From positions 1 to 30,931 of the forward strand of contig CAVXEP010000026.1 of NCBI GenBank assembly GCA_963760795.1: a stretch of 30,931 bases of DNA, in the 5' to 3' direction. The DNA comes from an uncultured delta proteobacterium (GTDB lineage Bacteria; Desulfobacterota; Binatia; UBA9968). A program made the translations under genes and the position numbers. This document shows positions 27,144 to 30,931 of the stretch, piece by piece; position 1 is the first letter of the stretch, and every line of letters begins with the position of its first letter. Below the pieces are notes generated by a model that saw only the letters and a list, made by a program, of their open reading frames with translations, was not told the DNA's origin and made no database searches.

Positions 27144-27718
27144 CGTTTGCCGTCGACCAAATCTTTGATCAGTTTACGCGCGCCTGCGCTATGCCAGTCC
27201 GCCGGTCCCCAGCCGCGCGCTAAACCTTCGCCTTTGGAACCTATGAGATAGGTCGCGGGCAATCCCCAAGCGCCATATTCCTGGCCGACTTTAGCGTCGG
27301 GATCGAGGGCGATCGGGTAGGTGAGCTTGAGTTCCTTGACGAAATCGACGGCGTCTTGTTTGCGATCTTTGACCGCCACCGCGAGGATGACAAAGTTCTT
27401 GTCCTTAAATTCTTGATAGAGCTTTTCCATCGCCGGCATCTCTTCGCGGCAAGGGACGCACCAGCTGGCCCAGAAATTCAACATGACAACCTTGCCGCGA
27501 AAGTCGCGCAAGGAGATTTTTTTGCCGTCGGGAGTGGTGAGATTGATTTCCGGTGTCGGCGCGACCTCTTTCATCGGCTGGAGAATCGGCACCGCTTTGT
27601 AGTCGACTTTGGCTGAGGACTCTGCGGCGTCGCCGTCGTGAGGTGTCCAGTCGAAAAAAATCAGCTGCACCAGACAAAGCGCGAAGAATAGATGCCGAGG
27701 CTTCATCTTCATTGTCAT
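27140..27718 (-). CDS. TlpA/ResA-family periplasmic thiol-disulfide reductase
   Basis: Signal/TM segment and NFWASWCVPCREEMP; the stop overlaps the ccdA start. True start may be 27712. Confidence 0.92.
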   Translation of the reverse strand: MTMKMKPRHLFFALCLVQLIFFDWTPHDGDAAESSAKVDYKAVPILQPMKEVAPTPEINLTTPDGKKISLRDFRGKVVMLNFWASWCVPCREEMPAMEKLYQEFKDKNFVILAVAVKDRKQDAVDFVKELKLTYPIALDPDAKVGQEYGAWGLPATYLIGSKGEGLARGWGPADWHSAGARKLIKDLVDGKR

Positions 27719-27721
27719 CGC

Positions 27722-27750
27722 ACTCTAACCAACTGTATAAAGCGGCGCAA
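27722..27750 (-). promoter_or_regulatory. Putative promoter for tlpA-ccdA (leaderless or very short leader)
   Basis: TTGCGC, 17 nt, TAGAGT, a few nt before the ATGs at 27718/27712. Confidence 0.4.
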
Positions 27751-27873
27751 TACATGCTGACTGAACCAACGGCGCGGTAAATTTGTTCCTAGGCCGGTTT
27801 CGGAGTAAAACTCGCCGCTATGCTGCCGACATGGTGTACTGAGACGGTGAAAAATTGCGGAAACGGGGTTTCT

Positions 27874-27914
27874 AAAAGCAGAAAGCCCCCCGAATCATTT
27901 CCGGAGGGCTTCTG
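27874..27914 (-). terminator. Intrinsic terminator of the small Lys-peptide transcript
   Basis: Minus strand CAGAAGCCCTCCGGA-AATGA-TTCGGGGGGCTTTCTG-CTTTT. Confidence 0.8.
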
Positions 27915-27999
27915 TGAGAGATAACCAGAACGGTTATCTGGTCGCCTGAGAGTAAGGAGGGTTTATTCCACCACCACCACAACTCCACAAATTAATTAA

Positions 28000-28047
28000 C
28001 TACTTTTTCTTTTTGGCTTTCTTTTTGGCCTTTTTCTTAGCTGCCAT
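28000..28047 (-). CDS. 15-aa lysine-rich peptide MAAKKKAKKKAKKKK
   Basis: AAGGAGGTG-ctt-ATG GCA GCT AAG AAA AAG GCC AAA AAG AAA GCC AAA AAG AAA AAG TAG; too short for the ORF track. Confidence 0.75.
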   Translation of the reverse strand: MAAKKKAKKKAKKKK

Positions 28048-28161
28048 AAGCACCTCCTTGTAAGATTAAACGGGCGGGTATTTTCTTGATAGGAAGAACA
28101 GCTTGACTCAGGCGAAGACAGTTTACTATCAGCAACCCTCCCATATTTTGTACCTGCGCAG

Positions 28162-28235
28162 AGTATAGTGACACAATTAATGGTATGTCAAGAAAAAAAT
28201 ACTATTCTACAATTTTTTTTCAGAATTTTTTCTAT
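28162..28235 (-). promoter_or_regulatory. Strong sigma70-like promoter with A/T-rich UP-like element
   Basis: TTGACA (28191-28186), 18 nt, TATACT (28167-28162); A/T tracts at 28192-28235. Confidence 0.75.
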
Positions 28236-28556
28236 TCCCATGCGCTGCACCACGATGTCTTGATAGAGTTTGCCTGCAACGACGCGTTACAAATTAACTG
28301 CGTGTTGTTTTATTCGGAATAATCGCACTCATGACGCGTCGTAACGACGCTGGAGAAGGATTGCCCGACCAATTCTTGAAAAATAATCACCCGCGTCGCG
28401 TAGAATCGCGCTGATAGAAGCGAACTCAGATGGGAAACGCGATCGCTGTCAGTCGGTACCTGGCAGGATAGTTGGTTCGCGTTGCGGGATTGAAGTAGGC
28501 GCAGACAAGGCAAAAAAAACTTCTGACGCAGACAGCGTGACACCGTGAGATTGCCG

Positions 28557-29642
28557 CTACGCCTTCGCTGCGAGGATATTAAACACTCGCACCGGGCGGC
28601 TTAGCCCTTTCAATTGGAACTCCTCGAAGGCTTCGCTATCGAAGAACTCTTCCAACCGGCTCATGGTTTTTTGGTCGGTCAGGATCTGCCCGCCCTTGGC
28701 CTCGGCGCACATGCGCGCCGCGAGATTTGGCAAATTACCGACGGAGCTATAGTCCATGCGTCCCTCGAAACCGATGGTGCCCAGGGTCGCGTAGCCGGTG
28801 GCCAAGCCGACACCGAGGTCGAGATCGTAGCCCTTCTTCGTCCAAGCGATACGCAGTTCTTTGGCCCGATCGCGCATCTCGATCGCCATGCTGACGGCTT
28901 TGCGGCCATGGTCTTCGCAGGGCAGCGGATCGTTGAAGATCACCACGATGCCGTCGCCGACGAAACGTTCCAGTGTGCCTTCAAATTTGAAAATCAGCTT
29001 GCCCATCTCGGCGTGATAATCGCGCAGCAGGTCCATGACTTCCTCGGGCTCGGCATTGTCCGAGAACGCCGTGAAGCCGCGCAAGTCGAGGAATACCACG
29101 GTGATCTCGCGGCGATGGGTTCTGAACAGGTTTTCTTCTTTCTCCAGGATGGTCTCGGCGATCTGCGGCGAGAGGTAGCGTTTCAAACGCTCCATGCGCT
29201 TCAGCTCGCCGACTTGTTGCTGGACTTTCTCCGCCAGCGTGCGATTCCACTCGCCCAGTTGGTCGTGCAGCTCTTTGATGCGCAGCATGGCGCGCACCCG
29301 CGCTAATAACTCGAAAGAATCGAACGGCTTGGTGACATAATCGTCGGCGCCGGCGTCGAGACCGGCGACCTTGTCTTCCTGGGTCGCTTTGGCGGTTAAG
29401 AGGATCACCGGCACGCTCTTGTGGCGCTCGCTCTGCCGTAGCGCCCGAACGACTTCGAGGCCGTTCATCCTCGGCATCATGTAGTCGAGCAGGATGATGT
29501 CCGGACTGAAACTATCAGCCTTCGCCAGCGCGTCGATGCCGTCGGTGGCGCGCTCGAGGACATATTCGTACTCCATCAGCTCTTGTTCGAGCAGATCGAG
29601 ATTAAACGGTTCGTCGTCGACGATTAAGATTTTGTTTGGCAT
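28557..29642 (-). CDS. Response-regulator receiver fused to a class III nucleotidyl (adenylate/guanylate) cyclase
   Basis: Receiver: ILIVDD, LLDYMMP, LTA, KPF. A coiled-coil linker leads to the cyclase: [23 protein letters not shown]. Confidence 0.93.
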
Positions 29643-29707
29643 AAGTCATCCTAAGATCCTGCGCATTCGCTCAGGACAAGTTTTGGATTTTCGATTGTCC
29701 AACGCGT

Positions 29708-29734
29708 GTAGGGGCCGACCTGCGTGTCGGCCCT
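29708..29734 (+). repeat. GTAG-type REP-like element
   Basis: GTAG-GGGCCGAC-ctgcgt-GTCGGCCC-T. Confidence 0.7.
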
Positions 29735-29753
29735 CCGAACTATCGCCCCTTGC

Positions 29754-30045
29754 CTACTTAATCACCTTGCCCGCCCGCACCAGCACATTTGGCGGGATCG
29801 TCACGCCAATCTGCTTGGCGGCTTTGAGATTCACGATGAACTCGAACTTCATCGGCTGCTCGACCGGCAGGTCGGCTGGTTTTGTCCCTTTGAGGATCTT
29901 GTCGACCATCACCGCGAGCGCGTCTGTATGGTTCCGTCTGATCGGCTCCGTACGACATCAAGCCGCCGCTCTCGACAAAGTCTCCCTGGCTGTACATCGC
30001 CGGCAGGCGATTTTTGCCGCCAGATCCACGAACCGAGCTCGTTCC
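29754..30045 (-). pseudogene. C-terminal remnant of an ABC transporter substrate-binding protein (ABC_sub_bind/DUF534 type)
   Basis: With two indels it reads ERARFVDLAAKNRLPAMY...GGLMSYG...[50 protein letters not shown]; the N-terminal part is absent. Confidence 0.85.
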
Positions 30046-30190
30046 ACACAACACAGTATTGCTGTGGCAAAGATAATCGGTCGCTGTGCAGAGTGCCAAC
30101 CGCAGCATCGGTCCAACTGTTAGGCGCCACTCACAGCTTTTGATCGCGTGGTGGTGTTGATGTAGACTTTGCCAAGGAGGTAGATGGCTT

Positions 30191-30439
30191 ATGGCCCGCA
30201 TAGAGATCGGTAAACACTTGGCGGCGGATACCCGTGTTTGCAATGGGCGGTTGATCTTTCGCGGCACGCGAATTCTGGTATCCGATGCAGTTGAATTGAC
30301 CAAAGCGGGGTACACGCCTGACGCCATCGCCCGGCAATATCGCGGCCTGATCACGGCGCAGGGGGTGCGCGAGGCGCTGGCATTGACCCGCCGCGGCATT
30401 GTCAGAGAAATCCCGGCGCGACGTAAAACCGCCGCGTGA
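30191..30439 (+). CDS. DUF433-family antitoxin-like protein
   Basis: DTRVCNGRLIFRGTRILV...GYTPDAIARQY; SD AAGGAGG; the stop overlaps the next GTG (GTGA). Confidence 0.85.
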   Translation: MARIEIGKHLAADTRVCNGRLIFRGTRILVSDAVELTKAGYTPDAIARQYRGLITAQGVREALALTRRGIVREIPARRKTAA

Positions 30440-30800
30440 TCGTTCTGGATCACAATATTGCTCACGACCAAGCGCAGCGGCTGCGCCACCGCCGCATTCA
30501 CTTTCGCCAAGTCGGTTTCGAAGTCGGGCGACCCGAGTGGGACGATCAACAAGAAATTCTTAGGTATTTGCATGCGACTAAACAGCCAACGTTTTTTACT
30601 CGCGTTTAGGTTTTTATCGCGCGCCGTTGCGCCATGCCAACTATTGTCTGGTGGCGTTAACCGTGCCTGTGATGGAAACTGCCCAGTACATTTCCTAGCT
30701 GCTACGTCACCCTCACTTCAACACCAGAGCCAAGCGCAACGGAAAAGTCATCCGAGTTTCGACGGAGAACATAGCTTTCTGGGAGATGGGACAGACAGAG
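30436..30800 (+). pseudogene. PIN-like (DUF5615/VapC45-type) toxin, disrupted; 3' end uncertain
   Basis: MIVLDHNI...WDDQQEIL...TFFTR[D]LGFY...YCLV; one base missing near 30605 and an in-frame TAG at 30696-30698. Confidence 0.7.
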
Positions 30801-30931
30801 ACGGAGCGCCCTGAATTCATGAGCGCTATTTTCCACGAACGACGAACTCCTCCCCCCATCCGACCTGCAGAAGCCTGGATGTTATCACTCATACCTCTTG
30901 GCCGAATGACTCTATCCGCCGGCACCAGCAC

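Follow-up and report, generated by a model that had tools for sequence, protein, structure and literature searches.

Introduction

Dual-function small RNAs such as RNAIII (delta-hemolysin) and SgrS (SgrT) are both regulators and messenger RNAs (mRNAs); they are abundant and structured, measure a few hundred nucleotides (nt) and contain long-range helices. Lineage-specific tiny basic ribosomal proteins such as bTHX and bS22 have a defined sequence, with arginine, histidine and aromatic residues, and a fixed length. Control by pairing between the 5' and 3' untranslated regions (5'UTR and 3'UTR) of one bacterial mRNA is known from very few cases. In the hok mRNA of the hok/Sok type I toxin-antitoxin system, the tac/fbi 5'-3' helix closes the molecule (PMC9841398), and in the icaR mRNA of Staphylococcus aureus a C-rich motif of the 3'UTR pairs with the Shine-Dalgarno (SD) region (PMC3868564). 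Here we describe a gene on the minus strand of a contig from an uncultured delta proteobacterium of the class Binatia (GenBank assembly GCA_963760795.1, contig CAVXEP010000026.1, positions 1 to 30,931, the whole of this 30,931-nt stretch being called the window below), which encodes, on a structured mRNA, a new polylysine protein of tiny size and whose 5'UTR and 3'UTR are joined by a closing helix, P1, established by comparison of distant relatives.

An initial annotation, made from the letters of the window, had proposed at this place a pseudoknotted RNA cage around a lysine-rich open reading frame (ORF) and had suggested a new class of structured RNA. The finding is real and the element had no annotation, but it has to be relabelled. 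Structure and conservation stood up to comparison and non-coding status did not; the element is better described as the structured mRNA of a micro-protein than as a new class of non-coding RNA, because purifying selection acts on the protein that the tiny frame encodes. The pseudoknot is retained as a lineage-specific possibility.

A micro-ORF selected as protein

The product encoded in the window has 15 amino acids (aa), lysine and alanine only, 11 of the 15 codons being lysine codons. Every one of the 96 homologues read (74/74 and 22/22) has an SD and an ATG, and in each the frame is intact and closes with TAA or TAG. These intact frames range from 12 to 40 codons, and all insertions and deletions among them are therefore in frame. 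Outside two families, f1 and f2 in our labelling, the products measure ~25-34 aa and share an invariant core around AKKKAPAKKK, the consensus outside the window's family being MAAKKKA..SKAKKKAPAKKKAAKKKK. In the core AKKKAP[A/S]KK, found in 32 of 39 distant transcripts, entropy amounts to 0.037, 0.000 and 0.949 bits at codon positions 1, 2 and 3, respectively; all nine third positions vary, whereas first and second positions are nearly invariant. Such a pattern is a signature of selection on the protein, and this comparison of codons shows the frame to be a translated micro-ORF, selected as protein.

Lysine and alanine make up the homologous peptides together with a few serine, threonine, proline, glycine and arginine residues; they contain no hydrophobic stretch and, apart from alanine and methionine, no hydrophobic residue. 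Gene predictors miss the gene, the frame being too short to be called.

Distribution in the class Binatia

A DNA search of 61 relatives gave one match each in 38 genomes (f1 32/36, f2 5/5, f3 0/19), with identities between families of 67-72% over ~250 nt and a lowest value of 67% over ~255 nt. Overall, ~165 sequences were collected. A covariance model built from 50 distinct full-length ones (alignment A1) was run on 151 genomes drawn from across the class, and 63 of them contained the element: f1 8/8, f2 2/2, f11 16/17 and f12 15/17, with sparse families at f3 0/8, f5 0/7, f8 1/18, f9 3/18 and f10 1/17, these low counts being lower bounds since the model is tuned to f1. Scanning a species genome collection with a pattern gave 118 loci, 39 of them with the element, under titles that mostly read "Candidatus Binatia bacterium" or the older "Deltaproteobacteria bacterium". 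A metagenome scan for the pattern of SD and start codon gave 120 loci, 87 with the element, of which 80 were full-length and 75 of these new distinct sequences.

The 33 metagenome loci that a hidden Markov model (HMM) did not match were, L221 apart, ordinary genes or small proteins with a lysine-rich tail whose "SD" is coding sequence, and were judged unrelated. L221 encodes at 2060-2088 a 30-aa family member with boxes like those of L196 (family f13); it was missed by the f1-based HMM, and the family is therefore wider in metagenomes than the counts show. Twelve loci (L214, L225, L226, L233, L234, L242, L243, L285, L298, L301, L320 and L321) lie on marine metagenome contigs of low G+C content (35-43%) and phage-like appearance, unrelated to the Binatia element; in several of them AAGGAGG belongs to a frame of ~40 aa, in which it is translated as Lys-Glu-Val and which ends in a lysine-rich tail of 20-25 residues.

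Searches for known families were negative. Neither the window nor any of seven homologous loci matched an Rfam 15 family at its gathering threshold, in line with the statement of the initial annotation that no described family was recognised, and the element is a conserved, structured and expressed RNA with a predicted length of ~280 nt; sub-threshold hits to STnc180, a snoRNA and a miRNA (E >= 7) are chance. The longer homologues were compared with Pfam-A and NCBIfam, the 15-aa protein of the window being too short for such profile tools, and five of them, of 29-40 aa, matched no family at E up to 10. A profile of 18 sequences had no hit among 1.84 billion protein representatives, and exact look-up of seven homologous peptides found none among ~15 billion predicted proteins. 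Term searches of the literature, supplementary files left aside, returned no description of this RNA or peptide, and nothing relevant on Binatia with small RNA, on lysine-rich small proteins or on lysine codons in short ORFs. The gene was previously unannotated, and it is carried across many families of Binatia, a class of uncultured soil bacteria.

A second apparent genomic copy, on contig C25 of the same assembly (188424-188705), is no paralogue and was discarded as a contig-end overlap. Positions 27176-30931 of the window and the end of C25 (189403-185642) are 97.3% identical over 3767 nt; the assembly has probably kept two strain variants separate.

P1, a helix between the 5'UTR and the 3'UTR

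The minimum free energy (MFE) of the window's element, -80.1 kcal/mol, was no better than chance (shuffles -73.35 +/- 5.04 kcal/mol, z = -1.34), 18 of 200 shuffles folding as well; the window alone therefore allows no conclusion. By our own arithmetic, one perfect 8-9-mer complement is expected by chance ~0.2-0.6 times in a 283-nt RNA. It is conservation, not the single fold, that makes the feature real, and some 5'UTR-3'UTR pairing, often P1, appeared in 42 of 45 single-sequence MFE folds.

P1 joins a box ahead of the SD region (box5', 28115-28107) to a box in the 3'UTR (box3', 27950-27942); it has 9 base pairs (bp) here and 9-17 bp among relatives. It encloses the SD and the ORF in a loop of ~190 nt, so that the initial suggestion of an ORF looped out by long-range pairing is borne out. 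RNAalifold selects P1. Within f1 and f2 (A1, n = 50) seven of its pairs are invariant and one pair shows three double changes, from C-G to U-A. Families f11, f12 and f6 have the same core extended to 10-13 bp, and L195 carries exchanges from U-A to C-G and from A-U to G-C inside it. Different boxes of 14-17 nt, mutually complementary when read by eye, are found in L196 (f13), L202 and L205 (f15), L203 and L207 (f7) and L206 (f18), and these replaced boxes sit at the same two places, ahead of the SD region and directly 5' of a small hairpin.

Across the distant families (alignment A4), seven of nine P1 pairs were changed on both sides and 99.1% of cells were paired, against 30-58% for slid partners, and none of 500 shuffles reached the covariation of the whole structure (four helices); A4 is model-fitted, with 39 rows including two spurious antisense hits, and leans towards the modelled structure. 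A test that needs no alignment compared each transcript's own 5'UTR and 3'UTR, where the longest Watson-Crick runs were 9, 8, 9, 17, 8, 16, 9, 8 and 6, with non-cognate combinations, where the mean longest run was 6.0 and the maximum 8; L192 was the sole transcript without an excess. Comparative evidence thus proves P1 to be a 5'UTR-3'UTR closing helix whose sequence is replaced in distant families and yet stays complementary. Two other approaches were abandoned. Energies from RNAduplex for cognate and non-cognate UTRs (-48.0 vs -43.4 +/- 8.0) had their signal swamped by the G-rich and pyrimidine-rich background, and the longest-helix test was used instead; an unfitted MAFFT alignment of the distant transcripts (A5), 449 columns wide, was too long for a second model and left the divergent boxes out of register.

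Family f12 presents a variation. In the homologues L169-L177, L181, L182, L185, L186 and L188, box5' may fold back into a 5-bp hairpin (loop GCCU) and GUUGAG, at the extreme 5' end, is able to pair with box3'; several MFE folds choose this alternative. Such folds make a conformational switch possible.

Pa, a candidate crossing helix, and competing pairings

The pseudoknot of the initial annotation consisted of the P1 pairing and of a second one, between 28141-28134 and 27963-27956 on the minus strand. Both complementarities are found at these positions and they do cross in the window sequence. The second pairing, called Pa here, joins a G-box near the 5' end (GGGAGGGUU) to part of a C-box in the 3'UTR (AACCCUCC). 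Its strands are complementary in all f1 and f2 sequences, with at least 6 contiguous pairs in 124 of 125 when pairs are counted between the 5' end and the 22 nt preceding box3'. However, none of its nine pairs was changed on both sides in 50 sequences, nor in 125; all changes are single, most of them compatible with wobble pairing and some, at the helix ends, breaking a pair. Hence covariation speaks for one half of the proposed pseudoknot, the 9-bp helix, and not for the other, the 8-bp helix being invariant, confined to f1 and f2 and devoid of compensatory changes.

In the other families the G-box and C-box are missing as such. Several of them (f7, f13, f15 and f18) show instead a UCCC-type stretch directly 5' of the box3' core that pairs with an AGGGA-type stretch directly 3' of the box5' core, which by its position is a nested extension of P1 and no crossing helix. 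Since Pa is limited to f1 and f2, is invariant there and has a nested counterpart elsewhere, a lineage-specific rearrangement is plausible, and the crossing helix is kept as a candidate only.

Both strands of Pa have other potential partners. That of the G-box is the terminator's 5' arm, at an energy (-15.6 kcal/mol) close to that of Pa (-16.1 kcal/mol), and the 3' C-box can pair with the SD (CCUCCUU/AAGGAGG, -12.5 kcal/mol), with which 6-7 bp are possible in f1 and f2; this pairing competes with Pa, shows no covariation and is missing from families other than f1 and f2. The invariance of the G-box and C-box may thus reflect several alternative partners.

Smaller elements of the proposed fold fared less well. 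The letters of a 5' hairpin displaying the 9-mer of box5' (UGAUAG/CUAUCA) are present on the minus strand, but at least 3 enclosing pairs could form in only 21 of 50 sequences, with a mean z of +0.2 against shuffled flanks, and this hairpin was rejected as unconserved. The weak G-U-rich helix between a second C-box, 5' of the SD, and the (GGU)n tract is no better supported than its rival between the same C-box and the SD, each having one pair with two compensatory cells. In nested folding, the SD has an unpaired probability of 0.24 in f1 and f2 and 0.42 in other families, the UTRs reaching 0.36 and 0.33.

3' hairpin, terminator and G-rich tract

An 8-bp hairpin and a terminator had been announced 3' of the two pairings and both were found there (Table 1). 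They covary in A1 and again on A4. Throughout the class the stem of the terminator keeps a GCCC...GGGC core that is almost invariant, and variation is found in its loop and outer pairs; plain terminators do not usually show such a core, which may be due to alternative pairing with the G-boxes. The stop codon lies ~50 nt ahead of box3' and ~90 nt ahead of the terminator.

A G-rich tract exists in every family at a shifting position. All of the distant transcripts (39 of 39) have their most G-rich 20-nt segment in the 5'UTR, where it precedes box5'; of the f1 and f2 sequences, 83 of 125 have it within the P1 loop, as part of the 3'UTR. A G-quadruplex was considered but not adopted, a strict four-tract motif occurring in just 25 of 39 distant and 41 of 125 f1 and f2 sequences. 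The f11-type homologues L179, L180, L183, L184, L187, L189-L191, L193-L195, L197-L199 and L204 share a block, GCUAGGCACGUA, in the 3'UTR between stop codon and box3', of which L201 has a one-letter variant; the window's family has no counterpart.

Table 1. Coordinates in the window of the promoter, of the predicted transcript and of its parts.
Feature	Coordinates	Strand	Remarks
Promoter	28162..28220	(-)	A/T-rich upstream tract; -35 TTGACA 28191-28186; 18-nt spacer; -10 TATACT 28167-28162
Predicted monocistronic transcript, ~282 nt	27874..28155	(-)	Start placed from the -10 box, end from the terminator U-run
5' G-box GGGAGGGUU, 5' strand of the candidate pseudoknot helix Pa	28134..28142	(-)	Invariant in f1/f2
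GGAGGGUU, 8-nt G-box strand as named in the initial annotation	28141-28134	(-)	
box5' UCGCCUGAG, 5' strand of P1	28107..28115	(-)	
C-box CCCGCCC, 5' of the SD	28072..28078	(-)	Candidate partners: SD or (GGU)n tract
Shine-Dalgarno AAGGAGGUG	28051..28059	(-)	9-nt exact complement of the 16S 3' tail of the same genome
ORF encoding MAAKKKAKKKAKKKK, 15 codons + stop	28000..28047	(-)	ATG at 28047, stop TAG 28002-28000
G/U-rich (GGU)n tract GUGGUGGUGGUGG, 3'UTR	27968..27980	(-)	Other families: equivalent G-rich tract in the 5'UTR
3' C-box AACCCUCCUUA, 3' strand of Pa	27953..27963	(-)	Anti-SD-like
AACCCUCC, Pa partner within the 3' C-box	27963-27956	(-)	
box3' CUCAGGCGA, 3' strand of P1	27942..27950	(-)	
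8-bp hairpin AGAUAACC-GUUCU-GGUUAUCU	27919..27939	(-)	7/8 pairs changed on both sides (A1, f1/f2); distant families: hairpin at the same place
Intrinsic terminator and U-run	27874..27912, stem 27912-27882	(-)	7/10 pairs changed on both sides (A1, f1/f2)

Promoter, expression and genomic context

The promoter scores 11 of 12 consensus matches. Of 39 aligned homologues, 38 show no change in the A/T tract or the -35 box, and the remaining one is truncated before it reaches either. Distant families present an A-run/T-run, TTGAC and a good -10 box. The 16S ribosomal RNA (rRNA) promoter of the same genome (L208:3200-3290) has the same build, with an A/T tract, TTGACA, 17 nt and TATAAC. The promoter-like sites of the plus strand of the window were all weak, and a search for the promoter motif elsewhere in the genome gave just four other loose matches, none of them informative.

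In an index of public sequencing runs, 20 runs from 12 studies contain the stretch or part of it; 14 are RNA libraries, several of just 9-12 million letters. Soil and rhizosphere metatranscriptomes (four runs from four studies) yielded identical or near-identical short contigs and fragments, with contigs on 27908-28132, on 27908-28116 (depth 53.5) and on 28003-28226. In the same four runs the downstream gene was covered by one low-depth contig only and 28251-28405 by none. The contig ends at 27908 (two studies) and at 28132 and 28116 were rejected as transcript ends, as they fall where strains differ. One contig (X9, depth 26.8) runs from the ORF to 28226, where it meets a sequencing adapter; this point is 70 nt 5' of where the transcript is predicted to start. 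In X1, the contig of a relative extends further upstream than 28226.

In f1 a response-regulator/cyclase gene and tlpA-ccdA-folE usually flank the element on the same strand, tlpA being 150 to >1000 nt away. In f2, response-regulator/cyclase, tlpA, ccdA and folE were not found within the 1-kb flanks fetched. By our reading of translations, the element follows an enolase-like frame in f12 and a GcvH-like frame in f11, and the downstream frames differ. Since the neighbours change from family to family, the element behaves as an independent gene and not as an operon leader.

Interpretation and alternative explanations

We regard it as probable that the element is an mRNA of closed-loop form, stable and strongly expressed, that encodes a polycationic micro-protein. 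The near-consensus promoter and its A/T upstream tract, resembling the rRNA promoter of the genome, would drive very high expression, and the closed 5'-3' architecture, together with the 3' hairpins and, in the window's family, with Pa (GGGAGGGUU/AACCCUCC), would protect the short mRNA. The helices would occupy C-rich boxes that are otherwise free to pair with the SD, and the frame would be translated many times, its product acting as a polycation on nucleic acid, on ribosomes or on another polyanion. Feedback by the peptide, or a switch of partners by the G-box and C-box, is possible.

Several points weigh against this reading. The SD is predicted to be largely paired, so that the structure may hold translation down rather than favour it; in these folding models the pairing fits repression at least as well as an SD "kept open". 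The peptide is a predicted one, and its variable length and very low complexity make a specific binding site less likely. Neither the lack of compensatory changes in Pa nor the lean of A4 is in its favour, and the many SD-like standby sites that had been considered had to be given up, with 4.8 per transcript vs 4.5 in shuffles and hence no enrichment. Metatranscriptome contigs give no strand, ends or level, so that the level of expression cannot come from them, and their extension beyond the predicted start may come from a transcript that begins further upstream, from read-through out of the response-regulator gene or from DNA carry-over. Finally, the gene was not found in f3 in either the DNA or the model search, with one pattern match, likely by chance, in 21 genomes, and is therefore dispensable.

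The likeliest rival, although we hold it to be rather unlikely, is that of a dual-function RNA, which would code for the peptide and also act in trans, its 3' C-box (AACCCUCCUUA) or G-rich tract binding other RNAs, the 16S 3' tail or a protein. Both strands of Pa and both strands of P1 are invariant across f1 and f2 amid varying neighbours, which suggests a constraint beyond mutual pairing; the C-box is a few letters off the anti-SD of its own genome's 16S, the transcript appears abundant in RNA libraries, and the G-rich tract, kept in every family and yet moving between the UTRs, behaves like a linear binding site. A trans role through the C-box and the 5' G-box would however not be ancestral, since most other families lack them, and neither the unenriched SD-like sites nor the patchy four-tract G motif lends it weight. 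An autoregulated ribosome- or nucleoid-associated micro-protein, binding P1 or the G-tract of its own mRNA as a mimic of its target and repressing translation in the manner of ribosomal-protein leaders, would agree with the rRNA-type promoter, the extremely basic product and the partly sequestered SD of the predicted folds; it is nevertheless unlikely, as a sequence-specific protein site in P1 is hard to reconcile with the full replacement of P1 in several families, and the peptide varies from 12 to 40 aa. A more elaborate version of the closed-loop mRNA, in which a housekeeping transcript would have its 5'-3' helix, pseudoknotted in the window's family, hold the stop codon near the start so that ribosomes reinitiate on the frame, the G-box and C-box would switch the SD on and off, and the peptide would be a new polycationic, growth-rate-controlled component of ribosome or nucleoid feeding back on its own RNA, is in our opinion decidedly doubtful.

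Two further readings concern the frame itself. The 11 lysine codons among 15, followed by a terminator, form the run of regulatory codons expected of a lysine-sensing attenuator, in which the rate of translation of a leader peptide decides on termination ahead of downstream genes; the G-box can moreover pair with the terminator at an energy close to that of Pa, and the f1 element is usually 5' of tlpA-ccdA-folE on the same strand. But the downstream genes vary by family, lie ~150 to >1000 nt away, sometimes with room for an intervening gene, and include no lysine gene, so that the cognate operon is wanting; the non-lysine residues A-P-A are conserved as amino acids, and a ribosome in the frame does not touch a terminator ~90 nt beyond the stop codon, all of which makes attenuation very improbable. 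Barely credible is a non-coding structured RNA with an incidental or tmRNA-like frame, or its variant, a type I toxin mRNA, for which one may invoke the absence of protein family matches and the pairing of the RNA ends as in hok mRNA. The codon-position pattern and the in-frame insertions and deletions indicate coding selection, the peptide, whose only hydrophobic residues are alanine and methionine, is unlike type I toxins, and no antisense gene was noted, although no comparative search for one was made; against a tmRNA-like frame stand the blank result of ARAGORN at this place and the canonical tmRNA elsewhere in the genome. The closed-loop mRNA remains the reading that we prefer.

The element is among the best-conserved stretches of these genomes outside classical genes, yet gene callers missed it, and its contigs appear even in the smallest of the RNA libraries mentioned above. 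It provides a class-wide case, backed by covariation, of a bacterial mRNA whose 5'UTR and 3'UTR pair with each other, draws attention to a polylysine protein of extremely small size in a phylum that is uncultured and spread over the globe, and offers a compact system for asking what end-to-end pairing does for the translation of a micro-ORF and for its stability.

Comparison with known systems

The initial annotation had compared the looped-out ORF with transfer-messenger RNA (tmRNA), and this likeness holds for topology only, a short frame being looped out by structured RNA in both. The present frame has a perfect SD and an ATG, and no tRNA-like domain accompanies it, as had been noted at the outset: ARAGORN found no tRNA or tmRNA gene within 27500-28600 and the Rfam tmRNA model RF00023 had no match at the element, whereas the genome carries its own canonical tmRNA on another contig (RF00023, 194 bits). 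With bTHX and bS22 the peptide shares its tiny size, strongly basic character, restriction to a lineage and expected high expression, but it consists of lysine and alanine only, ranges from 12 to 40 aa, has no profile match and is not known to associate with ribosomes. Like RNAIII and SgrS, the element is a structured transcript of a few hundred nt that contains a short translated frame and long-range helices and appears abundant; there is however no homology and the peptide is of another kind.

RNase III usually needs a double-stranded stretch longer than P1. The element resembles icaR in pairing its 5'UTR and 3'UTR within one bacterial mRNA, and its 3' C-box, too, can pair with the SD (-12.5 kcal/mol); P1 however leaves the SD out, and the C-box, which occurs in two families only, can pair more strongly with the 5' end (-16.1 kcal/mol). 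In relation to hok, the differences are that there is no relation in sequence and no Rfam match, that the product is a soluble polycation where that of hok is a hydrophobic toxin, that no overlapping leader frame or antisense RNA was seen, that P1 does not contain the SD, and that the gene is chromosomal, single-copy and preceded by a very strong promoter. The analogy with hok is one of architecture, both being short mRNAs for a small peptide in which long-range pairing of the UTRs closes the molecule and competing boxes surround the SD. Among known systems hok and icaR come nearest to the element, as likenesses of architecture and not of homology, and what the Binatia element has in common with hok is a closing helix between the two ends of the mRNA.

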